From assembly GCA_017499595.2 (NCBI GenBank), contig CM039004.1:1736001-1800000 (forward strand): a stretch of 64,000 nt of DNA, written 5' to 3'. The DNA is from Psilocybe cubensis. Taxonomy: Eukaryota. Below the pieces are notes generated by a model. It saw only the letters and a list, made by a program, of their open reading frames with translations. It was not told where the DNA came from and searched no databases. Positions 1 through 31,533 of the stretch are shown one piece after another. Position numbers and translations under genes: made by a program. Every line of letters begins with the position of its first letter. Position 1 is the first letter of the stretch.

Positions 1-1758
1 TTGCTGTAAATAGGTCCAGCCGAAGCGACATTTGTGCCACATACCCGTAGCAAATCTGGGACCACAAACCTCCCTGAAGGAACTGTACATATATTTCGGG
101 ATGGCTCCAGCAAACCTACAACCGAAGAGCTTGAAGCGAAAGTTTCGAAAATGGCACTAACAGACCCCGCTGCAGATTCAGACGGGATTATGTTGGGTGT
201 ACTTGCAGTTCCATCGTGGATGACTCCTTCTGACTTCTTGGAATTTGTCGCTCCAGCGGTAGATGGTATCGCACACCTTCGGATTATTCGGTATACACGC
301 CTTCGTGGCTTTGAATTGGTAATTTGATTCTGACACCTTTTCAGAGACTTTGCTCCCAATCGTTCTATGGTCGTCATTAAGTTCCCCAACCCAGCAGATG
401 CTGCCGAATTTTCTGAGGCCTATAACGGCAAGCCTTTCAACTCGATGCAAGTATGTGGCAATATTTCTCTTCACGTCCGTAATCTCAATGTCGAGTGCAG
501 CCAGAAATCTGCCATGTAGTGCACGTTTTATCCGTTACCATAGACGTGGAAGATGTTGTTTCTCAGACAATATCTCGCATTGAGCATGCTCAAGGAAATG
601 TGTATGAATTACCAACATGTCCGGTTTGCCTCGAACGAATGGACTCCGCCGTTACAGGCCTAATAACTGTCCCTTGCTCGCACACTTTTCATTGCGCATG
701 TCTAAGCAAATGGGGAGACAGTCGGTGCGTTTCCACGCCGATTTTGCATGTTTGCATTCCTGAAAGTCTCTCCCAGCTGTCCAGTTTGCCGCTACTCCCA
801 AACACTGTTATCCTCTCATCCTACCTCTTCAACATCTACAAGGACCATACCGTTTGCTGATCCATTGGCTCAGAATCAATCGTCTTGTACATCCTGCGCT
901 TCGAGGAGCAATTTGTGGATATGCCTAATTTGCGGAAATGTCGGATGTGGTCGTTATGGTCAGGCACATGCACAGGCCCATTATCAAGCAACAACACATC
1001 TTTACGCATTGGAGCTCGAGACGCAGCGCGTGTGGGATTACGCGGGCGATGGCTACGTACATCGTTTGATACAAAACAAGGCCGATGGAAAGCTGGTGGA
1101 GCTCCCAAGCGCTGCCTCATCTGTGGCTGCAACACCACGAGAAGGGGGACTCGGACCCAGCCAAGCAGACGCACTGAGTGCGGAGAAAATTGAAGCAATT
1201 GGGATTGAATATTCATATCTCCTTACGTCGCAGCTCGATTCTCAGCGTTCATTTTACGAAGAACAATCACAAGAACTCAAATCCCAAGTAGATGAGCTCA
1301 AAACTCTCGTGGAAAAGCTGAGCGTTGAATTCAAAAAGGAAAAAGAACGAAATAGGGAAGAAGAAGTGCGCCTCCGCAAGGCAGAAGAAGAACGTATAGC
1401 TCAACTCTTGAAGGATAAAGCCAAAGCCGAAAACCGAGCAGAGAAGGTCGCGGAGCTAGCCAGACGACTAGAGAAAGAGCTTAGAGAGGAACGTGCTGTT
1501 AGCGAGGGTTTGATGAAGAATTTGAGCAAGATGCGAGAAAGGGCCGAATTGGCTGATAAAGATAGGGATGCTGCCATAGCCGAGGTCAAGGATCTCAAAG
1601 AACAATTGCGGGATGTGTTCTTCTCTCTGGAAGCTCAGAAAGCGATCGAGCAAGGTGGTGGGATTGAATCAGAGGCGGCCGGTGGGTCGATAGCTATCCC
1701 TTTACCCGAGTCGACGTCGACTACGGATGCAAAAAAGAAGAAGGCTAGAAAGAGATAA
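1..1758 (+). CDS. BRAP2: BRAP2/ETP1-type E3 ligase (BRAP2 RRM-like + RING + zf-UBP + coiled coil); 5' end lies outside the window
   Basis: LGVLAVPSWMTPSDFL (BRAP2 domain); ELPTCPVCLERMD...CSHTFHC.CL.KW...CPVCRY (RING); LWICLICGNVGCGRY..AHAQAHY...VWDYAGDGYVHRL (zf-UBP); short GT-AG introns. Confidence 0.93.
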
Positions 1759-3198
1759 ATGACATGGATTCAATTTTCCCATTGATCACGCAGGCTTTCG
1801 ATATTCTAAACATGGGTGTTTTCGATCTGACTTCGAGATCATACTTTGTGCCTCTCACTTGCTCTGAGTCAGAATCGGTGGACTGTCTCCGCGATATCTG
1901 TGTGAAATGGATGGATTCAGACTGGCCGAGCCAAGTATATAAGCTGTGTGGGTTTCTATGCGGACCCACAAGTATAGCGCCAGTCCTATATTTGCTCCAA
2001 GGGCACCGGACTCGTGTACGATCGCAGATGGGTTTAAGTATATGTCTTTAGACCAATTAACGTTCACGTCAGCTCACTTAGTGACTCCAATAAGTTTGTT
2101 CAATTCATGAATCAAGATTGAAATAACCCGCCCTTTTGCATGACCACTGACTACACCTACTATTGGCTGACTAGTGCGCAACTACATGCATACTTGCGAA
2201 ACACAGTCTGATTTTTTGTAGCGTTACAGTTTCCAGCAACACGTCTAGAATTTACCAAATGGAAGGGCACCTCAATTTTTGAACTTTCAGAATACTGGGA
2301 CCGCAAAAGTGAACCTCGTACTATTTCGACATTTCAAGTGCTCGAATTACCTCGGAAAGAACCAAAGGTAGGAAAGAAGTAGTAGTCGACCTGTGCGAGA
2401 ATTCCCCGAGTCCTGCAAATTTGACATACTAGTAAATACCCACTGTTTTGTGGTACTTCGGACAACTGGCATATGGGTATCAGAAGTTGCCAATGACATT
2501 CATTGCACTCTCCCCGTATCTAATGACAGTTGGTCGGTTATTAGTAGCTACGAATAGTCTATCTGGAAGTCTTGGCGCCGTATGCCACATAGCACAAGAG
2601 TAATTATGTAGGCGCTTATTTTTGGGTGAGGTAACTGGGCCCCCAATCTTCTTTACTGACTTTGGCTTATGACGCCATGAAGCGACCCAGCGACGAATGG
2701 CCCCCAATATCCTTTACATGTCTTATCCATATTTTACTATCCTAATCACACTGCCAAATCCCCAGGTCCAGTGTAAGCTATTCCCATCTCTCACTTTGCT
2801 TTCACTTCAACCTTCCTGACTAATTAGTTCCTAAATTTTCCTGTGCATTTGAGACTTCAATCCGCTTCTCTCTGTCAGTTATAATTTTCACATCGTGATA
2901 TATTGCCTTTCAGCCACTATTTGAAGTACAGTGAAATTAGGTTGAAGTAAAATTAGGATATTTGGTGTCCTTGTTTGCCAAGAGCTTCAATCTAGGGTAC
3001 CCCCAGTGCGTCATGGGTCTTCGCTCGGTGCTCTTGCTCATGCCCCAGCTGTCCGCTCCTCTACTCAGACAACCCTCCGCCCTCTTTCATTCAAAAATTT
3101 TCTGAACATCTTGATAAACTTCACACCGAGAACAACACCAGCGATCACAGTCTCTGCGATTATCATTGACTAATAGCGTTCATTCCGAGTCTGAGAGT

Positions 3199-4921
3199 GA
3201 TGAGCACAAACCATCGAAAACGCAAATACCGTGGCACGGCGCGATCTCACAACTCGTACTCAGGTTCAAAATCTCAGCAGCACATTGAACCGTTTCTGAG
3301 TCACCATGAAGCATATCTCAACCAGCAACAGATCTCAAGCTCGACTGCATGGGGAGTTGACCTTGATATTTCTTATCGTGGCGAGTTGACTCCAGCTACA
3401 CATCCACAACCCGACCCCCTGCAAGCACTATATATCCAGGCACATGAAGCAAATATTGTAAAGGGGTCCAGCGCAAAAATTGCAGCACAGTCGTTAGAGG
3501 TAGTGGAGTATCACACCGTTCCGTTGCCTCTTGGGACAGTTGTCTCTGAGTCTCAACTATCTGCAGCTCCCGTCGTTATCACTCCCAAGGTTGGGACTGC
3601 TCTGATTGAGTTGGGCGACGGCAATGTGCGGCAGGGTGAGGTAGAGAGAAAATCTCCTGGTGCAGCTGGTGGCCTTGTACATTCGGCATTGGTGGTTGTC
3701 GACGATGACATCGACTACGTCGATTCTTCTGCCTTGTTGCCAGAAAAGTCACCATCATCGATATGGGTTGACAGGTATGTCCGTGTTTCATGTTCTTCGA
3801 TCTGCAGTATGAGTGAACTCCCGGTCAACGATGTCGGGATTTCGATTAGGGGAATTTTTCGTTCCTCTTTTTCGCCCAAGTCTCCGATGTGATGTCGAGT
3901 ACCAGTTCATGCGGTCAAGTCGTTTACCTATGACTTATTTACATCTGGCCCATTGCCACGAAGTCAATGTTTCTACTTTCTTTTCTCGTTGAGAGGTGAT
4001 TTACAAACTTTTGCTCCCACCAGGTACGATATCCGTCTCCTCCTCAATAACACTAGACCATTTCCCCCCCTTTCTCCCGAAAAGCTACCACCTGCATCCC
4101 CAACAGGTTTCTCCGACCTTCCCTCAGACGCTGAAGATACCTTCTTTTTCTCCTCCACTGAGGTGGAAGATTTTAGGCGGGAAAAGCGTCGGCGGGTAAT
4201 GGAGCGTACAAGGGATGAGCGAGTAAAGGCGCGTATGCAGGAAGAGGGGTATGAAGACAGACTTGGAAATAACAAAGAAGAGGAGGATATATGGGGTGGG
4301 AGTGACGAAGAGGTATGTTCACCCTCATTTTCATGTCATTTTGCTTTTGCTCGTTCATGTATTCCCCATATTATCATTCCACTCAACCTTCAGCATTGTT
4401 CTTAATACTAATTTCACCTTTTAACCCAGCCCGACCAAACACAACAGGATCTTATGGAGCGAACCGCCATGCATATTGCCTCTTCACCGAACGCAGCTCA
4501 ACTTGAAATGCGCATACTTGCCAACTATGGGGCGGATAAGCGATTCGCGTTTCTCCGTGGACGGTGGAAGCGCGCATGGGGATTAGCAAAGGCTAAAGCC
4601 CGGATCAAGTTGAAAAAAAAGGTGGAGGACAAGCAGAAGGAGCCTGAATCCACGGGGGTATTAGCTCTGGCAGGTTATGGAAGTGACTCACAGGAAGATG
4701 ATGATGAGCCTGTGGCAGAGCAGGTAATATCATTCGTTTCTCCTCCATCCCTTCTTCCCTCCTCAGCACCGCCTGTTGACCCCGATGTGTCTCATTCTTC
4801 AAAAGTGCAAAGCACTAGTAGCGTCGATGCAGATGTAGAGAAGGAGGAACAGGCAAAAGAAGCTCGACGTAGGCGGCTGAAGGCATGGGCAGCGCAACGT
4901 AAGGCAGGTAGCAGCGGCTAG
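3199..4921 (+). CDS. SWAP/suppressor-of-white-apricot-like splicing regulator (DRY motif + SURP-like module)
   Basis: Splicing out 3775-4023 gives IWVDR|YDIRLLL (DRY_EERY-type motif); the last exon MERTAMHIASSPNAAQLEMRILANYGADKRFAFL resembles a SURP module. Confidence 0.7.
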
Positions 4922-5448
4922 GTAGAACCAGTGAACAATGTAATGCGTGAATCTAACTAGGACCAATATACTGTTGCAGCTTTGATACATCGCATCTGTA
5001 AACCATTCAGCTGCGTAGGAACTTCGACCTTACAATTGCCGCATATATGCAGTGGTGAAAGTTCCAACGTAGCAAAGTATTTAAATCTGTCTACTTGTCT
5101 TATGCACTTTAACCCAATATCCCAGATTTCATTGCCTGGTTTTGTCCAGGCTGGAGTTGTAGTGGTATCAAGGAGCGGGTAGAAATTTCCATTTTCTAGT
5201 TCGCGATATCTTAGCCTCCGATCTGATGAGCATCACTGCAGTGGCAATGCTTCCCGGAAGGCATGCAGACTGCAGTGCAACAATCTTGCAGAACTTATTA
5301 AATGCCTTGGCTGAACCAGAGGTCATTGAAAGTTGTTTTAATCAAAATATCTGGTTCCACGATTCCCTGCATGGAAACCAATTACAGACGGTCAGCAAAC
5401 ATGTAGAACGTTGACGGAAGATTGATGCGCACTGTTTTTGCCTACCGT

Positions 5449-5801
5449 GATCCGCCATAACAGCACGAAATAATCGACCTCGAATAGCCATGGCATGTTG
5501 TGCGATGCATGTCTTTCATATATCCCCAACCAATAGATTCTATTTTCAAAGAACCAATGCGATCCTGATTAGCCCGAGAACTTCGTGAGCAAAGTTACAG
5601 ACTAGAAACGCACATTAAGAAGGCTACAACACCATACAACCAATCGAGGGTGTTCGGCGCTGTGGAATAGCCATCGTAGGAAAGTTTTGCCTTGGATAAA
5701 CCGAATCCAGCTGTGAGGACAATTACCAGGATGCGATATCCAGTCATTAAAGGATGACTTCGGCTATGGGTTGGAAGGCCATGAGGTTCCTGATAACTCA
5801 T
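5449..5801 (-). CDS. small hypothetical membrane protein (further 3' exons not resolved)
   Basis: Exon 1 ...HPLMTGYRILVIVLTAGFGLSKAKLSY...LDWLYGVVAFL; exon 2 IYWLGIYE..ASHNMPWLF read across a GT-AG intron; TATA-like TATAGAA upstream. Confidence 0.55.
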
Positions 5802-6276
5802 TTTGATTATGGTGGGAGGGCAGGCAAACTCTAAGCTTTGCAGTCGAAGGTGAACAGTGAAAGGAGATTAAAGTTGAAGCTTGAGGCTTTCAGGTGAGCA
5901 GCTTCTATATGGTAGGAATCCATTGTCTTTTCACGGAAGGCACTGCCCAGTGACATTGCCCCTGGATATTGCCTTACGCATTTATTGTACTCGTATTTGC
6001 GATGCCAGCACTGCGTCTTACCTGCAATGCTTTATTTAGGTTGAATACCCGATTTTTATCACAGCCGTGGCAATGGATGTCCAGCACCATCTTACTTAAT
6101 AATAGTTGTGCGGGCCTCTGTCTCGTCAATTCATACGCTAACTCAAGTTGATAGTTGGTCTGAAAAATTATGAAAATCCGAACGTGCCCCCGAGATGTGG
6201 CTTCATTACAATGCGATGATAAACAAATAAAAATATAGATACATCTATGCAGAATCGAGAAAGAACACCCATGATA

Positions 6277-9200
6277 TCACAGACCTTCGAAGAAAGACAA
6301 ATCTTGGGCTGACAGCCCACCTGTCTTCGTTCCATTTGAAGCAGGCAAAATAGGCTGCGCAGCCAGTGGCGTCATGAAAGGTTGTAATTTTGTAGCAGGA
6401 GGAAAGGTAGCCTGCGCCGATTGTGGAATAGGTGTGAGGAGTGTACTATTTGACGCCGGTGGGGGCCCGAAGTTCAACAGTGGAGGCTGCTGGCTAGTTG
6501 AAGATGCAGCAGCGATGGCAGTAAGTGAAGCAGTAGCTTTTGCTTGTTGATCTTGCATCGACGATCCACTGGAGAAAAAGTCGACAGTAGAAGATACACC
6601 ATTTGCCTCGGGTGGAGGTAAAGCTTCAGGAAGTGGAGAAGGAGGCGCCAACCAACGTCCGCGTGCTGCTACGTTCTCCATCAAGCTTAAAGTTTTAGAG
6701 TGGTTAGCAACTCTGATCGGTTTGTGATGGTTTGAATGCGCATGATTTGCATTCTTTGGGACAGATGGCGACCGACTGAGTGGAAAAGATGACTTTGGGG
6801 GAATTGGCTTTGCAGGCGGTTGCGGAGGTGGGGTAACAAAGTCGTCAAAGTCATCAAAAAGATTGCTGGTGGAATGAGTAGTAGTTTGGTTAAGACTGGG
6901 TTGTGATGGTGTAAAATTGCCAAGTGATAACTGCGGACTTTGTGTATTATCAGAAGGGGAGGAAAGGAACTCCGAAAAGTCATCGTCTTCAATAGTTGTT
7001 GTTAAGGGCCGTGGTGGAGGAGGGACACTATCCCGTATTAAAGGTGGGAGGTGAGATTGTGCTCGTGAAGGGGGCGGTGGTGGCAAAGGTGATATACTGC
7101 GCGACTCAGGTCCAGATCCGACAGTTGTACGTCTGCTTAGTGATGGAGGATTTGATAATACAAACCCTGAAGTTGGTTTTGGAAGGAGAGGGGGATTAGC
7201 GGATGTTGGTTTTGATGACGAGGTCGACATTATGGCGACAAATGGCCGTTTTGTCGGAGCAGGTTTTTTCATTGGTGTGGAAGAAGGGTAGTCAAATGAG
7301 GGCCAAGGTTGATTGACGTTTCCTTTAAAGTCTAGCATTTGCTCTGATGTGTTTACAGAGTTTGTTTTAGTGGTTGTAGGAAGAGCCTGGGTTGTGAAAC
7401 CCATGACAAGTGGCGTAGGCACTGGTTTTATTGGCAATTGGGATTGAGCTGGAACCGGTTGCATGTTGTTATCATTATCAAAGAAAGAAAGAAAGTCATC
7501 AACAGGAGGATTTTCCTGTGGTATGGGCATGGATATCTGTGGAGGAGCTCTAGGAGGCGGCTTCAGTGGGGGAGGTAAAGCAGTCTGAATGGGCGGTGAT
7601 TTAATCATCATGCTAAGCGCATCTAAACCCATACTTGAATCCGGGCTTGTGTCCACTGTTGGTACATCCGAGAGAAATTCAAGATCGTCGGACGAAAGAG
7701 TCAGAGAATCTCGACCATTTGATTTTGAAGGACGGGAGGAAAATCGACCCAGAAATCGAGATACTGCCGATGGTTGTGGCACCACTTCCGCATCAGGTGA
7801 ACCAGCTGGTACAACTGTGGCCGTGACATGCTCTGGCGAGATATCAACGTCCTTAACGGAGACTGGGGGAGTATTTGTAGTAAATGTTACAACACTAGGC
7901 GAAGGTGGGGCAGTGGAACTACCAGCCTGACTTTGACTTATACTGCGACGACTGCTGTCAATGCTTGGGCGAGGAGATGTTCCTGGCCTAACAGAAGATG
8001 TACCCGAGAGATTTATTGGCGAGGACGACCTTGCAGCAGTTACGTTCTGATTATCCGAAGGAGAATTCGTTGTCTTCCTTCCAAAGAATGAGAGAAGCCC
8101 CCCACTGGATTTCTTTTTGCCATCATCTGCGGGCGACGCCTCAGGCTTCTGAGTTTCCAGTATTCGCCAGCCTGCCGGAGTAAAGTCTTCTTGTAAAAAA
8201 GTAGGCTTTGCCTTCACGGAGGCTTCCCAAGAAGTTAATCCCTTTGAGGACATGTAGAACGTCATTGGACTAATTCTTGTCAAGTGTGTGTGTCGCGTCA
8301 TTTTGAGAGCTTCAGACATTTGCTTCGAAGTAAATGTTTTCGAAAATGGTTCACTAACAGGAAGTGTCAAGCCTTCGGGAACCAGTCTAACGACGATAGG
8401 GGCTCTTAAGCAAAGGAATAAGCCATCAGGAGGCGCAATTGAATGCAAAATAAAATAACTTACAGACCAAGATGTTCTTCCATATCTGTAGGGAGTTGTG
8501 AGCCAAGAGCGTCAGTCCGAGACGGCGTGGAGTCGGACCATAGATCTTCAGATAAACTTTCGAACTGTTGAAGAATTGAGGCCAATAGCTCTGGTGGCTA
8601 CAGATCAATCAGTTTATGTCTTGTGCGTATGGCATATGAGGCTATACGAACGACATGTTCATCTTGTTTTTCTTTTTGTCGGCGAGCTACTTCCCAAGCA
8701 TCATCCACGTCCAGATTGGCTGTACTTTGCGCATCTGAAGTTGTTGGAGCAGATAATGTCTCCCATGGCCCATCCCAAACAGCGGCATCAGCAGAAGGAA
8801 TAGAGAAGCCGGGTCTAGATATTGACCAGTCTTCGGAGTCTGCACCTTCATTAGCTGTTTCAAATGTACCGAATGCGTCAAGATCATCCACAGGTCCAGT
8901 AGAGAGAGCGGGAGGTAATGTAGGGATTATCTGAGGGGAACGTGGTGGTGGTGGTGTGTCCGAAGTTGTCGATGTTGGCGAACCAAACGCGATAGTATCC
9001 TTAGGAGTCACAGAGCCTAAAGACCTCTCCACATCATTGGTTGGCTCGGACAGGGAAACGTTATTTTCAGACTGGGAATCAGGACTCGAAGACCCCTTGT
9101 CAATTGTTGAAGTAAACGGATTCCAGATGGTAGATGCGTCATTGGTCCACAATGCTTCAGAAGTATCCGGGTCATTCCACTGTGTTGTTGTTGGTTGTGC

Positions 9201-9353
9201 AGACCAAGAAGGGAGCGAGAGATCGCCTTCACCGGTGTCATGGTCACTCTGTGTTGTGGAGATGGCGGGAACAGACCAAGCAGAGGTGGATGTTAGCGAG
9301 TGCGGACTTGTCTTGGAAGGTTCACCCCATGCATTGGCCCATGGATCGTCCAT
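6277..9353 (-). CDS. large Pro/Ser-rich disordered protein with adaptor-ear-binding-like motifs
   Basis: Long ORFs 8598-9353 and 6277-8448 joined by short introns; motifs DDPW, DAFGTF, DDDFSEF, FDDFDDF; C-terminus LSAQDLSFFEGL. Confidence 0.65.
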
Positions 9354-9695
9354 GTATGTGGCCTAAACGAAGCTCCGATTTAGCTAGTTCAAGTCTGTGA
9401 GTACAAGTATGTAGTACCTGTACAACTGTACAAGTCACGGTCGAGTGATCAGATTCAGGGACGGTTGGTGCGTGGCTGTGCAACCTTCTAGCACGTGTCT
9501 GGAAACTAACGCGCAACTGCCATCATTGTCAACAGGTGAATGGGCCCTTTTCAAGCCAATCTCTTTAATAGAGGGTTATCAACCACCCATGCTGCCATCT
9601 TCGTTCCTCAGTCAACTATATAGCAGCTGAAACCGGCTTTCTCTTTGTTTCTCCATACCGCTTATCATTTACCAAATAATAACATATCATCGTCC

Positions 9696-10970
9696 ATGGA
9701 GCGGCCAGTTCACGACCCTGCTGCCGACAAACATATTCTAGACTGGGACGAATCAGATGTATATCAATGGTTTTCAAGTCTCGGATACTCTCAATACGGG
9801 GAACAAATCAAAGGTCTCTTGCATTTCTACCAATAACTGTAACATTGTAATAAAAGTTTCCGTCCAGAGCACAAAATACAAGGGGATTCACTGTGCATGT
9901 TAGATTCTGATGGGCTCAAGGCTTTCGGCATCACCACTGTAGGACAACGTCTATCGATACTTAAGTCGATTTATCATCTCAAAATTGCTCACAATATACC
10001 CTTCGGTGAAGACGATTACATTCCACCATGTAGGTTGACTTTCGAGGCTTCACAATTTGCTGACACCACGTCTAGCTGAAGCCTTTTCATCTGCTGATGT
10101 TGTTTCTCTGGAACAAATACACTCCACTATCAAGGAACAAGGTGTGATCATTTACCCCATTATCTTTGTTTTTCTTTACTTAGTCCATTACCATCCAGCT
10201 AATCGCCTCCGCACGTTGGAAGAGGACAACAGAACGCTGGCCCTCGCAATGAGATCTTTCTCTGATGAGATCATCAAACTTCGTTCTACTGTTGGATCCC
10301 CTGTAAGCGATCGTGCCTTGAGCTTCATTCGTGCGTGTCTCATAGCACAATATAGGATGAGAATCCGAATCAAATTCGAAAGCGTGTTCCTTATCTCAGT
10401 AACGAGATGGAGGCGGCAGGGAATTCTCTCGCAATTGGCGACGAGACAGCTCGAGGCAGCGTTGCCAGTCTATCGACTGCAGAAAGCTCTACCCTTAATT
10501 CCATAGCAAATCCTTCGGGTCGTGAGACTCCTGATAACTTTCCTAATAACACCAAAGTCAGTTTAGACGACCCTACATGGAAAGTTCTTCCCGCTGCATT
10601 AAAGAAGCATCGTATCAACACAGATGAATGGCCAAACTATGCGATGTTTATTAGTTTCGGTCCTGCCAGTACGTCTTTAATTTTATGATAAAACCAAGCT
10701 AAATATTTCTCAATACTAGACAATCGAACGAAGCGGAAATTGGAGCTGGAAGAAAAACCCCTATACCTATTCAAGAAGCTTAAAGAGGCTCAGAAAAATC
10801 CCGCTTTTGTCCTGAAGAACATGAAAGAACCTCGCACACCTGCTGTCGATGAAACACCTTTAAGCAGACATTCACCGAACAAATCAAATGTGCTCACACC
10901 AGCATCAAGCGCAAATCGTGCTCAGGGATATCCAACACCTCCATTATCGAGATCAAGTCCTGGATTTTGA
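9696..10970 (+). CDS. Ste50/Ubc2 paralog, short form (SAM + RA domains, no SH3)
   Basis: ILDWDESDVYQW...EHKIQGDSLC.LDSDGLK..GITTVGQRLSILK (SAM); KVSLDDPTWKVLPAALKKHRIN...YAMFI...EKPLYLFKKLK (RA); six exons splice in frame. Confidence 0.85.
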
Positions 10971-24983: not shown

Positions 24984-26114
24984 ATGGCAAGCTATTTCTC
25001 CAACCACTCCGCCTCTAGATTTCTTGCAAATAGTACAACAACGCCCGCAACGACATCCACCGCCCTCTCGCCCTCCAACTCTTCTGCACAACCCACTGCA
25101 CCCGCCACAACGCCCTCCAGACAGCGTATCCCAAGCTCAAAGCATTTCTCCACCAGCGTAAACGTCTCCCAGCCAGTTGCTTCAAAGGATCCTACATCCT
25201 CTTCCACCACATCCTCTGCTTCTGCATCACAGGTCCATCCACTACGAAACACGTATGTTCGTATTTTTTTCCGTGTCAGCGATCGCATCCCTTTTGACCG
25301 CTTCTCTGGTTTAGTTGGGTATTTTGGTTTAGACAACAACGCGCACCCGGAAACAAAATCATTAGCTACGAAGAAGGGATAAAAAAGATCGCGGCTTTTA
25401 GTTCTGTAAGCTTATGCCATTCACCTCATTCATTTTTACTGGGCGCTAAAGTGATCTGGAGGTCGAATCGTTCTGGTCCTTGTGGACCCATCTGACGCCT
25501 CCATCATCCCTGCAACCCACTACAGACTATCTTCTTTTCCATGCAGGTATACGCCGACCTGTGTGGGAGGACCCACTGAATATTACTGGCGGAAAATGGA
25601 TCATACGCCTCAAAAAGGGCATTGCCGATCGTTTCTGGGAGGATCTTGTGTTAGCAATAATTGGTGACCAATTCGACAATTGCCGCAGCAAAGTGGAGGA
25701 CAGTCCCAAGGGGAAATCAGGCGTCTCCGCCACCGGAAAATCTGAGGATGGCAGCGAAGGAGGGAGCGAGTGGCCGGAAATCTGTGGGTGCACGCTTAGT
25801 GTAAGGCAAAGTGAGGATATCGTCACAGTGTGGAACAGAGTGGATGGCGACCCTAAGCTGAGAGAGCAAATTCGGTACGTGATTCGCCGCTGAGAATATG
25901 GTTTATTGGGGTTAACATGGAGACCAGTGATACTCTGCGGAAGGTTCTGAACCTTCCACCATCAACCATAATGGAATACAAATCTAATAATGGTACGTCG
26001 GATGACTGATAATGTCGGTCGTTTGCTCAACAAACGGGATTAGACTCGATGCAAGACAAGTCAAGTTTCCGGAGAACAGCGATCGACAAGACGCCAATGT
26101 CCCCAGCATCTTGA
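24984..26114 (+). CDS. EIF4E2: translation initiation factor eIF4E, class II (4EHP-like)
   Basis: HPL..W; SVESFWSLW; RPVWEDPLNITGGKWIIRLKKGIADRFWEDLVLAIIGDQF; Tyr (SYEEG) at the first cap-stacking position. Confidence 0.88.
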
Positions 26115-26395: not shown

Positions 26396-27186
26396 ATGTT
26401 CGGAGTTCGCACCATCCCTAAGTTTCTCTCCAGTGTGATAAAAACACCAAGAGCAAGACCATCAGCCACTTTCTTCCCCTTTCTTATCGGAACCAATTAT
26501 TTGAGCAGCCCAGGAGCAAGTCCTAGAGCCATGTCTACTACAGTGAACAAGTCTGAGAGCGAATGGAGGGCAATCCTGTCCCCAGAACAGGTGTGCCTCA
26601 CTCTGTACTCCATGAACCGTGTATGCTCATCTGTTTCGGTCGGCGATTTCTAGTTCAGAATCTTGAGGCAGAAGGGTACTGAGCCAGCTGGAACGGGCGA
26701 ATATGATAAACATTCCGCAGCTGGAGTCTATTCGTGCGCGGGGTGTGGGACACCGTTGTACAAGAGCACCACAAAGTTCAATGTATGTTACTCTAAAGCA
26801 TCATATAAGTGACGTCCTAATGTCTAAAATCTACTCGGTAGAGCGGTTGCGGTTGGCCTGCCTTCTTCGATGGTAAGTATTAGCTCTCATAAGATTCCAT
26901 TGTGTATGGTGGCTGAGCTGTTTCCATTCCTCCATACAGCAATCCCAGGTGCCGTGAGCAGACATGAAGACAACTCCTGGGGTATGAAGCGTATTGAAAT
27001 CACCTGCACCGCTTGTGGTGGCCATCTGGGACACGTTTTCCAAGGCGAAGGATTCCCTACTCCAAGTATGCTATTGATCTCTATCCGATGACCAGATATG
27101 CTCTAGCAATGTGCTAACTGACATTCCTAGCTGATGAACGCCACTGTGTCAATTCAGTCTCACTCAAGTTTCATGATGAGAAGTAG
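26396..27186 (+). CDS. MSRB: methionine-R-sulfoxide reductase MsrB
   Basis: KSESEWRAILSPEQF.ILRQKGTE; SGCGWPAF; CGGHLGHVF.GEG; RHCVNS. Confidence 0.95.
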
Positions 27187-27551
27187 ACCTAATCCGAGCT
27201 TGCAACATGGTGTATATTATATGACTGGATATTTGTATTTGGCTAGATCGAATTTGTAGCTGAAATGGATGTGATTGTATTCCGAACAATTAAATCACGG
27301 ATCGTCTCCATCAGCAAAGTAGGTGAGTTGTCATTGAAGTTTTGAGATTGAGACTGAATAAACCATGTATTCAATGGGTGTAAAATCCAGAGGTATACAA
27401 AAACGAAGAAGGATGATGAATATATGAAAGTAAAAATGAATTGTATACTGGTGGATATATCTTTGGTTTCAGACATGCGCAAACTCCATTGGTTGGACAT
27501 GATAACCAGCAACGAAATGCAGAACATGCAAGTTGGCAAACAAGCCGTGAA

Positions 27552-28243
27552 TTACAGATCCTGCATAGTCTTCTCCAATTCTTCGAGGTCGGCGATTGAC
27601 TTTTTGTACTTCGCGTTGGCCTCCTATCAAACAAAGATTGTCAGGGGCTTGGTTTATAGCGGACAACGGATCTGACGGACCTCGTATTTCCTCTCCCACT
27701 CATCTCGCTCCTGTTCAACGCGCTGTACCTGCCTTTCAAAGTGTTCTGCCTTGACATCAACTTCTCGCAGTCTATAGAGGTTCGATACAAGGAGATCAGC
27801 AATCGATCATCCTCATAAGCCGTAGGCAGTGCACATACTTCACTGTGGTTTCATTGAGGTTTTTGTCCGCCGCAGTAAGTTCCTCCTCCAAAAGGGCAAC
27901 CTTACGAAGCAGTCCTTCAGATGCCATTTTGCTGGACTCGCCATCCAAAGATAAAGTCTTGAGTTCTTCGAGCTTCGTCTCGGCCTTTTCGATCTCTGCG
28001 TCTAAACGACTGATCTGGTGTTGCAGCGAAGTGATCTCCTGATCTTTTTCAAGTAACAATTGCTCAAGCTTCCTGTTCTTAGCCTCAGCCTCTTCAGCGC
28101 GTGCAACCGCGTTGTCGGCCTCCAGACGGAGGGAGTTCATTTTCTACATGACAGGTTATCAAGGGTGGTTAGATCACCAGTGTCGTGGGCGGTAACGGCC
28201 AGGATATGCACAAAGAGCTTACCTCACGAATTCTGTCAGTCAT
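27552..28243 (-). CDS. TPM: tropomyosin (~162 aa, 4 exons)
   Basis: MTDRIRE|KMNSLRLEADNA...K|LREVDVKAEHFERQVQRVEQERDEWERKYE|EANAKYKKSIADLEELEKTMQDL. Confidence 0.95.
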
Positions 28244-28686
28244 AGCGAATTATAAAGGCGGATTAAGAGATTTGATGATTGAGCTGCGGTATGTTGTATG
28301 TTGGGTCAAGTACAAAAGAGGGAGCGTTCGTTTGAGTAAGGGCAGGCGTGTTCGGAGATTAGATTATAGCACGTGCCGGTAGAGTAACACAGGCATTCTT
28401 CGTTTGTTCTTTAACTTTCATCTTCACAACCTACGCGCCTACGCCCTTGTATATTTAATTTTCTTTCGCCTCACGGAGAATATGCGGACGATCTACTATA
28501 TAGCACCCTCTACACGTCCTCGGATCGATTCTTCACCCAACTCGAGGCTATCTAAATTGCCAGCAAAATTCTGGACAAGGCCTGTCTTGATCAGGATACC
28601 TCTTCTCATAAACCAGTCCCCCTAAAGACTAATCATAGAAAACAGCGAATTAAGTGAGATTATCTGCGATTGTATCTACCAGCCAA

Positions 28687-29221
28687 TCAATTGATTCCTA
28701 GATGCTCGAGCTCTATGACCATCTCGTTATACTGCTTTTTTGCGCTCTGTGTCCCCTGCTTCAGCGGGCATAGCTTTCTGAAACTGGGGTGCATTTACCT
28801 GGTATCTTGACTCGAAGTCATCTGTCTCGGAACGCAGCCTTTCTATCCTTGCTTCTAAGGTCTCTGCCTTCTTCGAGGCACTTTCGAGCCTTCGTGCTAG
28901 CTGAAAACGTGGACGCGAGAGAGACGCGCTAGGAACCTACTTTGCCTTCCCTTCTCCCAATTTCTGCAGCGTTACGATCAGGTCCTTCGTTAGCTGCATA
29001 CGCTGTTTTGACAGCTCTAGTTGTTTCTGCAGGTCTTTTTCCATTTGTGTCTTCTCCTTCAAGATATGCTGCAACTTCTTTGCTGTCTCTTCGGCCGCTG
29101 CAGTACGTTTGGTAGCGTTGACAATAGCGGCACGACGAGCCTCTGTAAGCTGTAGAATGCTGGTGAGTAGAATCAAGGACGATGTTTGTGAACGGGTACA
29201 TGCCCCCTTAAGTCTGTCCAT
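28687..29221 (-). CDS. divergent ultra-short tropomyosin paralog (~125 aa, 4 exons)
   Basis: MDRLKG|LTEARRAAIVNATKRTAAAEETAKKLQHILKEK...K|LESASKKAETLEARIERLRSETDDFESRYQ|SAKKQYNEMVIELEHLGIN aligns to the adjacent tropomyosin with three equivalent intron positions. Confidence 0.75.
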
Positions 29222-29438: not shown

Positions 29439-31533
29439 ATGGCGCCAGTGCCGCAGGAAGGTTCGTACATGGCCCTTGTAAACCACTCCATATCTCATTT
29501 GTACCAATAGAACTTCCCATTCTCGAGGCCTTGATCAAGTATGAGCGCCATATATCTCTGTTGAAGCCTCTAATAGCATTCTATTTCTTAATAGTATCAG
29601 GAATAGGCTTACCGCTTTGAAGAAAGATCGTGGCGAGTTCATCAAAGCTTCTGATGTCAACCAACTCCACCAGGCGGTGGTTAAGCAAAGTGCGTCTTCG
29701 ATAGTTTAATATTTATGTCTTCAGACAATTTATCGGTTAACCCTCATTCTCAGTTACGAAGCTTAACGACTTACGAGATGATACAACAGCATATAATAAC
29801 AGAGTGGACACAACCCTTGCCGATGTCTTCAGCTTACTCTCTCTGTTCTACCTCACAATCGGCAAAACCAGAGACGCGCCAGCGACGTATTGTCAGATTG
29901 CCTCCATGCGGGTCAGTGAATGCCCATTTCAGAAACCCATCCATCGTGTCCCTTGCACATATTTGCGTCGAGACACCGTGTCTCATGTCCTGGAAGGAAC
30001 GCCGGGTGGTCGATCTGTCTAGCAAATCTGCGCCTCTCTTCTTCATTTCGCTCGTGCTTATCATACTTTTTGGCCCTTACAGCAAATTTTAAATCACATG
30101 AATGAATCCGCCGTTTATAACGAAGCCGATCTCAAACCTTTTCAAAGGCGCTTAACAGACTTGCGTACCATCATCCAGCAAGATGGCGAAAACGCTAAGA
30201 ATCCAAAACCGTTGACCAAGCTCCTCGAGAGACAACTGAACGAATGCGGTTTGTCAATTTATCTCTTTTTTCATGTACATATCATTGAGATTTTTGTCTT
30301 AGATGCCATTGTACAACAATTACAAGACTCTCTATCAGTGTTATCGCCTGAGCTCGTCCCAGTACATCAGAAACTCGTTACAATTCGACGGCAGCTTGTT
30401 GCTCTTGCTGCAAAGGAAGGTTCTCAGAAAGCTGAATTGAAACCTATTATCGAGGAGCTTCGTAGAATCGATTCGTTGAGTACCTCTCTCCTACATTATG
30501 TCTGTTACTATAGTTCCTTCCTTTTCATTGAATCATTTCGATTGGTTTTGCTTACTGAAATTCTGTTTTACTCGTATGACTAGAACACGAGTTGACGGCA
30601 AATTCTTGGGTCCCGGGGGCATCGTACCATCTTCACAAGCGATTTGCTCGTCTCTCCTGGAGGAATGTTTTGAGATTATTCAAGAGATCAAAGCTCACGA
30701 AGACTCGAAGAATGTGGCTTCGTCTCTCAAGCCCATATATGACCGACTCAGCGAAATCCGAGCAGAACTCGAAAGCCTGACAATGACCCACCGATGGAGT
30801 TTGCGAGAGACCGACCTCTGGAATTACTCACTCAGTCTGCAAGAAATTGATAAAATGAGAGTTGACGGTAAATTCGTGGATGCAGATGGGAATCGACCTC
30901 CAGGGCAATACGTAAGCCTGACAGCCACATAATCGACGCCTGTTTGCTTAGTTTCCCAACAGGTTCTTCTCTATCTTCTGCGACGATGTTATGGTCTGAT
31001 ATACCGTCTGCTCTCTTCGAGCGAACCTGTTTCGGAAGAGCTTATGCCTATTGTAAGCGAAGCATGTTGTCCAATCAATTTACTAAGAAACCTGTAGGCA
31101 AATAAATTGACCACTGTGAAGAAATGTTTGAACGAGGTTTTGAAATACGGCGGGCCGTTCAACCCTCGCGATTTATATCCTGTATGTTGCTCTTCATATG
31201 GGAAACGTTTTTGTTTGCTAACCAATGTGTAGTATCAATTAGCCTTATTTCAAATCGACTCGATGCGGAAGGATGGGCGTTTCGTTGGAATGGATGGGTC
31301 CATCCCAGAGGGACAAGGTATCATAAATGCAAATCTGAGCGAATGTCATGAGCTTGTTGAGATGGTAAGCAAGTCCTTATTTTTCTACAAATATTTCTCA
31401 ACGCGATCTTTTGATCGACAAATAGCTCAAGGAATCTATGGATGAAGGTGAAACGGAGGAAGATGAAGATGATTATGATTATGATTATTCTGATTCTGGA
31501 TCCGATCTCGAAGGCGAGGAAAGACAGCAATAA
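29439..31533 (+). CDS. DUF2408 (UPF0662, yeast YPL260W/Cub1-like) protein
   Basis: ELPILEALI.IRNRLTALKKDR; NRVDTTLADVF.LLSLFYLTIGK; THRWSLRETDLWNY; LLRRCYGLIYRLLSSSEPVSEEL. Confidence 0.85.

Follow-up and report, generated by a model that had tools for sequence, protein, structure and literature searches.

Is the stretch of DNA just upstream of the tropomyosin gene of Psilocybe cubensis a second, much shorter tropomyosin gene, and what could the protein it encodes do? In a survey of 27 fungi a 161-residue tropomyosin occurred in all of them and a longer second gene in two yeasts only (available part of PMC3805550). The window analysed here, 64,000 nucleotides of contig CM039004.1, had been the subject of an earlier note proposing that a separate, fast-evolving gene for an ultra-short tropomyosin lies in tandem with the gene for the ordinary 162-aa protein. 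This proposal was borne out: gene structure, RNA contigs, relatives, synteny and dN/dS all support an expressed tandem paralog of 125 aa. The note did not mention that the protein has reversed its net charge and lost most conserved surface sites, that relatives occur across agarics, or that the Coprinopsis gene rises in primordia. We present the evidence for the gene, its descent and its family, and then weigh what the protein may do.

Results

Structure and transcription of the short gene

The features of the locus are given in Table 1. The genome contains one locus for the short gene, and the canonical tropomyosin gene, which lies 443 nt downstream on the same strand, is the sole genome-wide Pfam tropomyosin match above the cut-off (two of its exons; exon 2 scores 60 bits against PF00261).

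Table 1. Features of the tropomyosin locus (window positions)
Feature	Position	Strand	Remarks
Short gene, coding sequence	28687..29221	-	ATG at 29221, stop at 28687; open 378-nt frame, 4 exons of 18/209/91/60 nt, 125 aa
Short gene, exon 1	29204..29221	-	18 nt, 6 codons from ATG; six-residue start identical in P0001-P0004
Short gene, intron 1	29150..29203	-	54 nt, GC-AG, phase 0, in frame, without stop; inferred, supported by relatives
Short gene, exon 2	28941..29149	-	209 nt; the corresponding tropomyosin exon has 305 nt, 32 codons more
Short gene, intron 2	28890..28940	-	51 nt, GT-AG, acceptor AAG, phase 2; skipped in X1 and X2 contigs
Short gene, exon 3	28799..28889	-	91 nt, the length of tropomyosin exon 3
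Short gene, intron 3	28747..28798	-	52 nt, GT-AG, phase 0; absent from the X1 contig, bridged by a loose end in X2
Short gene, exon 4, coding part	28687..28746	-	19 codons and TGA stop; C-terminal residues common to P0003 and P0004
Short gene, 3' untranslated region	28434..28686	-	minimum extent, from X1 contig
Canonical 162-aa tropomyosin gene	27552..28243	-	exons 28243-28223, 28143-27839, 27771-27681, 27623-27552; X1 and X2 lack all three introns
Divergent flanking gene with DUF2408 domains	29439..31500	+	end approximate; presumed ATG read from sequence
Convergent flanking MsrB (SelR) gene	26530..27187	+	bounds approximate

Splicing was checked in contigs of four runs, none of them recorded as RNA; two from one study (X1 and X2) were guessed to be RNA and proved to be spliced, and the other two are unspliced across the whole stretch. 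Intron 2 is removed at the predicted bases in both X1 and X2, intron 3 is removed in X1, and a loose end of 23 letters on the X2 contig matches exon 4. The junctions proposed in the earlier note were thus confirmed by spliced contigs for introns 2 and 3, while the GC-AG intron 1 was nowhere seen spliced and draws its support from relatives. Both RNA contigs stop at 29150, the last base of intron 1, a weak hint that spliced and unspliced paths merge there, sharing only the last G. Since this intron is in frame and free of stops, reading through it could give a protein of 143 aa. The Hypholoma and Pholiota proteins, however, join exactly at the predicted junction, three metagenome loci (L028, L035 and L039) carry GT-AG introns at the same position, that of L039 being 50 nt long and thus impossible to read through, and locus L010 carries an intron-free frame of 123 aa. 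Four proteins (P0001, P0002, P0003 and P0104) run past exon 1 with Ala as their next residue, which fits a conserved GC donor.

The first 94 unspliced codons are the start of NCBI model JR316_0008099, a 147-aa 'hypothetical protein' of Psilocybe cubensis in which introns 1 and 3 are retained. Because the RNA removes intron 3, this model and the NCBI model of 143 aa were both rejected. We also rejected the possibility that the short gene is a set of alternative exons upstream of tropomyosin: a stop and a 3' untranslated region of its own are present, and its X1 contig, which extends 253 nt beyond the stop, is separate from the tropomyosin contig, although contigs cannot fully rule out read-through. 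Positions 28736-28741 form a run of six T in the window and of seven in the loose end of the X2 contig; if real, the extra base would shift exon 4 and end the protein at about 112 aa, and it may be a homopolymer error at the contig end.

Both tropomyosin genes are transcribed in the same samples (X1 and X2) and, according to the accessible data for Coprinopsis, in primordia. Contig depth in X1 and X2 was 26 and 156 for the short gene and 174 and 195 for the tropomyosin contig, figures that are a poor measure and were not taken as expression levels; the sixfold difference for the short gene is in line with regulated expression. In Coprinopsis cinerea the short gene, CC1G_14841, is numbered beside CC1G_14840, which is annotated as tropomyosin-related. 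The portions of the published data sets available to us place CC1G_14841 (GO:0051015) among the top 15 primordium genes by 5'-SAGE, at 0.0 versus 66.2 tags per 100,000 (PMC3606632 Table 5), and by RNA-seq it rises from 741 to 10,058 in primordia (13.6-fold, P 6e-69), while CC1G_14840 is flat (0.91-fold, P 0.45; PMC4082614). In the accessible proteomics file of the latter study ordinary tropomyosin appears and the CC1G_14841 protein is absent. The same supplement, as far as available, gives the CC1G_14840 model as 37.5 kDa, about twice the size of a fungal tropomyosin, and it is probably a fused gene model.

Descent from tropomyosin

The introns of the short gene and the adjacent tropomyosin gene match one for one (phases 0/2/0), as the earlier note had claimed, and exon 3 is of equal length in both. 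The two proteins are 26% identical (pairwise BLASTP, E 1e-14), and their global alignment score of 119.5 was reached by none of 2000 residue shuffles and none of 2000 heptad-block shuffles. Profile-profile comparison of the short family with tropomyosin gave a probability of 92.3 and an E value of 5.5e-7 with a single 32-residue gap, the family profile matches Cdc8 at both ends (E 0.014), and the first matches in the ESM Atlas are tropomyosin clusters, with scores of 0.96 and 0.95.

Profile searches gave a mixed picture, and the earlier note had named a lack of tropomyosin similarity in such searches as a sign against its reading; this sign is partly present. Pfam Tropomyosin (PF00261, gathering cut-off 38.6 bits) gave no match for the unspliced pieces of the window protein or for P0001-P0003, though it recognizes their relatives: among 22 proteins scanned, 12 match tropomyosin at E<=0.01 and one lies above the cut-off; P0004 scores 26.9 bits, and the L010 frame scores 44.5 bits, above the cut-off. 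Homology to tropomyosin spans the whole chain and is accompanied by a common gene structure, and on sequence grounds we regard the short gene as a tropomyosin paralog by descent. Its product is not classed as a canonical fungal tropomyosin because it fails two canonical features, acidity and the surface sites.

A family conserved across agarics

A homolog search with the single sequence returned 3 proteins among 5 candidates, and the family emerged only with profiles. Searching 1.84 billion representatives with a profile gave 25 matches at E<=0.001, 23 of which constitute the family; the bacterial P0100 and the aphid P0112 are long unrelated proteins and were dropped. Fifteen named species are represented, comprising three of Psilocybe, two of Agrocybe and one each of Hypholoma, Pholiota, Crassisporium, Phlegmacium, Crepidotus, Panaeolus, Crucibulum and Cyathus, together with Agaricus bisporus and Coprinopsis cinerea, all of which we take to belong to Agaricineae; P0108, P0109 and P0110 were left without species names. 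Length is tightly held, with 14 of the 16 complete members at 122-125 aa, one at 120 and one at 117, and the sequences are diverse (mean identity 33% among the 13 members compared). Counts based on 13 or 17 sequences exclude P0094 (an N-extended model), P0096 and fragments.

UniRef labels three members 'Tropomyosin', and NCBI calls these hypothetical proteins. The family is easily missed, since public gene models are mis-spliced in two Psilocybe species and most members carry the name 'hypothetical'. No description of it was found in the literature searched, which lacked most subscription papers, and no match to it occurs in the supplement of PMC8805025 or in the available parts of those of PMC4624876 and PMC10282164.

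The duplicate lies in an old gene interval

Scanning metagenomes with canonical tropomyosin yielded 44 loci. Four of them (L010, L028, L035 and L039) carry the short gene immediately upstream in the same orientation, and in the three genomic loci L028, L035 and L039 its exons measure 18, 209 and 91 nt, the sizes found in the window. Both DUF2408 and tropomyosin are visible in 16 loci. The short gene stands between them in three, and in the other 13, four of which are nearest to Rhizopogon, the two genes are close together with no trace of it, which points to tandem duplication into an old gene interval. In the window the presumed DUF2408 ATG and that of the short gene are only about 217 nt apart, and the short copy thus occupies the place where tropomyosin faces DUF2408 in loci without the duplicate. 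For L010 and L039 the nearest tropomyosins are those of Sphagnurus, Tricholoma and Tephrocybe, which suggests that the duplication may predate the split of Agaricineae from that group. The 17 aligned short sequences form one clade (bootstrap 100), whose position among canonical genes has a support of only 16-26.

Synteny and dN/dS in relatives had been proposed as checks of the gene, and both came out in its favour. Between L028 and L035 dN/dS is 0.35 for the short gene (10 nonsynonymous and 8 synonymous changes) and 0.07 for its canonical neighbour, ratios that derive from few changes, and the distance from the window to L010 is 3.34 substitutions per site for the short gene versus 0.41 for the canonical pair. 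By these estimates the short copy has evolved several times faster than the canonical one.

Several observations concern the surrounding genes. The canonical tropomyosin of the window is itself rather divergent, exon 2 being at most 74% identical to its 87 matches, and those of L028 and L035 are about 66% identical to the nearest named protein; possibly the canonical gene was relaxed after duplication. L031 and L038 lie on one 25-kb contig, whose two tropomyosin-like genes, opposite in strand and separated by about 13 kb, represent a separate duplication. MsrB (+) and tropomyosin (-) converge at 26400-28350 and share one RNA contig in both X1 and X2, and likewise in L010, which suggests that their 3' ends overlap. 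An eIF4E-family gene (PF01652, 121 bits) lies at 25450-25893, upstream of MsrB.

An internal deletion that disturbs the register

The earlier note described the protein as about 37 aa shorter than its neighbour, roughly one actin-binding period. The total is correct, but it is made up of 32 residues within exon 2, one at the N terminus and four at the C terminus, and no clean 38-residue period was lost. Residues 1 to about 51 match canonical 1-51 (161 numbering) and the remainder matches at +32: the N-terminal part aligns at offset 0 with a score of 46.5 against 13.6 for the next best, and exon 3 at +32 with 40.7 against 20.3. The deleted segment, about 52-83, contains the shift of the canonical heptad register. 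Removing 38 residues would take out this shift cleanly, whereas removing 32 leaves a one-residue offset near residues 49-53, and a hinge in the dimer is therefore predicted there. The C-terminal overlap segment (canonical 155-161) scores 19.0 at offset 32 and 17.0 at offset 39; the C terminus would either lack at least four residues or have lost one heptad and retained its motif.

Core and N-terminal end are kept, charge and most surface sites are not

The window protein lacks proline, and 4 of 13 family members have one or two. An AlphaFold2 monomer of P0004 is a single helix over residues 2-122 (pLDDT 94.9), although a monomer cannot test the hinge. The a/d core is kept on both sides of the deletion, and core and flank positions are better kept than surface positions (0.67 versus 0.43, p 0.003). 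Overlap contacts of Cdc8 involve M1, K3, L4 and R12 (available part of PMC11626781). The N-terminal overlap residues are kept in the family, which is basic at 3 and 12 (net charge +0.87 and +0.94) and hydrophobic at 4 (0.93). Fourteen of the 16 complete members begin with Met-Asp/Glu/Asn/Gln, the NatB acetylation pattern. An acid at D131 is kept in 17 of 17 sequences and a base at R86 in 15 of 17.

The charge is reversed. The window protein has a net charge of +5 (pI 9.4) and the adjacent tropomyosin one of -12; the ranges are -3 to +6 for 13 short sequences and -10 to -14 (pI about 5) for 19 canonical ones. The deleted segment (-4.5) and the e positions (-6.4 to -0.5) account for most of the shift, and the b, c and f surface sum moves less, from -5.3 to -3.2. 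Of the 21 conserved surface sites of Cdc8 listed in the available part of PMC3805550, two are deleted, and the window protein keeps 6 of the remaining 19 (family 3-10, canonical proteins 16-19). According to the same source, changes at V114/E117/H118 or R121/D131/E138 of Cdc8 make actin binding too weak for measurement; four of these six residues differ in the short protein. E93 is replaced by Lys or Arg in 13 of 17 sequences. The 38-residue acidic periodicity was not found in the short protein, where autocorrelation was 0.08 versus 0.26 in a comparison of low power.

Discussion

The scenario that we favour, at roughly even odds, is that the short protein forms a weak or altered actin cable for fruiting. 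In an agaric ancestor the tropomyosin gene was duplicated in tandem, and the copy, placed between tropomyosin and DUF2408, lost 32 codons from its centre together with its last few residues; many mushroom genera have kept it at 122-125 aa. The protein may be N-terminally acetylated and form a parallel two-chain coiled coil, hinged near residue 50, whose dimers would join head to tail along F-actin with three subunits per dimer. Binding to F-actin would be weaker than, or different from, that of ordinary tropomyosin, the surface presented to myosins, cofilin and fimbrin would be altered, and the short tropomyosin might thereby mark or tune an actin population of fruiting-body cells. This reading is favoured because length, coiled-coil core and N-terminal junction fit. 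From the Cdc8 overlap of 5.8-12.5 A (PMC11626781 Table 3, available part), about 4-8 residues by our conversion, a three-actin form is expected to have about 122-123 aa; a three-actin span fits, and follows from total length only. Against a cable are the charge, the lost surface sites, the change at E93 and at four of the six positions important for Cdc8 binding, the lost acidic periodicity, a C-terminal overlap segment that is shortened or shifted, and the absence of the protein from the Coprinopsis proteomics file. A deletion of 32 rather than 38 residues also places the N- and C-terminal sites out of their old phase. The stronger form of the proposal, a dedicated fruiting-induced gene whose product makes a three-actin cable, binds F-actin though basic and without the periodic acidic surface regarded as the driver of binding, and is needed for mushroom tissue, is possible but doubtful.

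The features that weaken the cable also lend themselves to other explanations. Reversed charge, a surface stripped of most conserved sites and of its acidic periodicity, and a distance to L010 well beyond that of the canonical pair could mean that the protein is a repurposed coiled coil, derived from tropomyosin but no longer coating actin. In fruiting cells it would then be an adaptor, a spacer or a filament that assembles by itself. There is a precedent in the atypical tropomyosin of Drosophila, which plays such a part for kinesin-1 (PMC8247599, available part). We consider this somewhat unlikely, given a length near three periods, the retained acetylation-type start, R12, R86 and D131, and the fact that the b, c and f charge changes little, the shift stemming mostly from the deleted segment and the e positions. 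Opposite net charge, together with co-transcription of both genes and conserved N-terminal junction residues, is also what a modulator of canonical tropomyosin might display, one that joins it end to end or pairs with the acidic chain, with the effect that cables end, weaken or change phase during fruiting. For the window proteins the counts of attractive and repulsive g-e' pairs are 2/4 in the short homodimer and 4/2 and 2/3 in the heterodimer; across the family, however, they barely differ (3.1/2.5 in homodimers versus 3.8/2.5 in heterodimers), and a side-by-side heterodimer would need 32 residues looped out, leaving a modulator unlikely. That the gene is a duplicate in decay, or encodes a functionless coiled coil found next to tropomyosin by chance, is highly improbable and largely refuted. 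The silence of Pfam on the pieces of the window protein, the raised dN/dS from few changes and the base that may be inserted in exon 4 at the end of one contig would fit decay; frames that stay open and exons of constant size in 15 named species and four metagenome loci, common intron positions, a single strongly supported clade, spliced RNA and regulated expression do not.

Descent, intron positions, a/d core and N-terminal overlap residues are common to the short protein and canonical fungal tropomyosin, as represented by the product of the adjacent gene (162 aa) and by Cdc8 of S. pombe (161 aa, PDB 8PUZ/9FF9). The short protein differs in being 36-37 residues shorter, with the central register-break segment deleted, in being basic and in having lost most surface sites; in the Coprinopsis data available, moreover, the short gene is developmentally induced and the canonical gene is flat. 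By features, the first ESM Atlas match of P0004 (0.96) is a cluster named 'Tropomyosin-2', with a representative of 125 aa and 418 members, mostly from Mucoromycota. If these members are whole proteins, short fungal tropomyosins exist in another phylum, which would lower the novelty of the length but not of the gene family. Neurospora crassa has a tropomyosin isoform of about 123 aa, a splice form of its one gene that keeps canonical sequence; the literature searched yielded no report of it. Both proteins have a length near three actin periods, but the agaric protein is encoded by a separate gene and is remodelled in sequence and charge. S. cerevisiae likewise has two tropomyosin genes of unequal length in one fungus, Tpm1 (199 aa) and Tpm2 (161 aa) (available parts of PMC3805550 and PMC12440208). 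These differ by a 38-residue insertion, a whole period, and are about 64.5% identical (available part of PMC2120352), unlike the pair in the window with its 32-residue deletion, end trimming and identity of 26%. Drosophila aTm1 is also a tropomyosin-derived coiled coil, possibly with another partner, although it is an isoform of an animal gene.

A second, short and basic gene kept across agarics alters the picture drawn by the survey of 27 fungi. The short gene offers a natural test of whether tropomyosin must make periodic acidic contacts to bind actin, or whether its shape and end-to-end linkage suffice. Among cytoskeletal genes it is also a candidate for a role in fruiting-body formation, and one that can be studied in two workable species, Coprinopsis cinerea, as CC1G_14841, and Agaricus bisporus.
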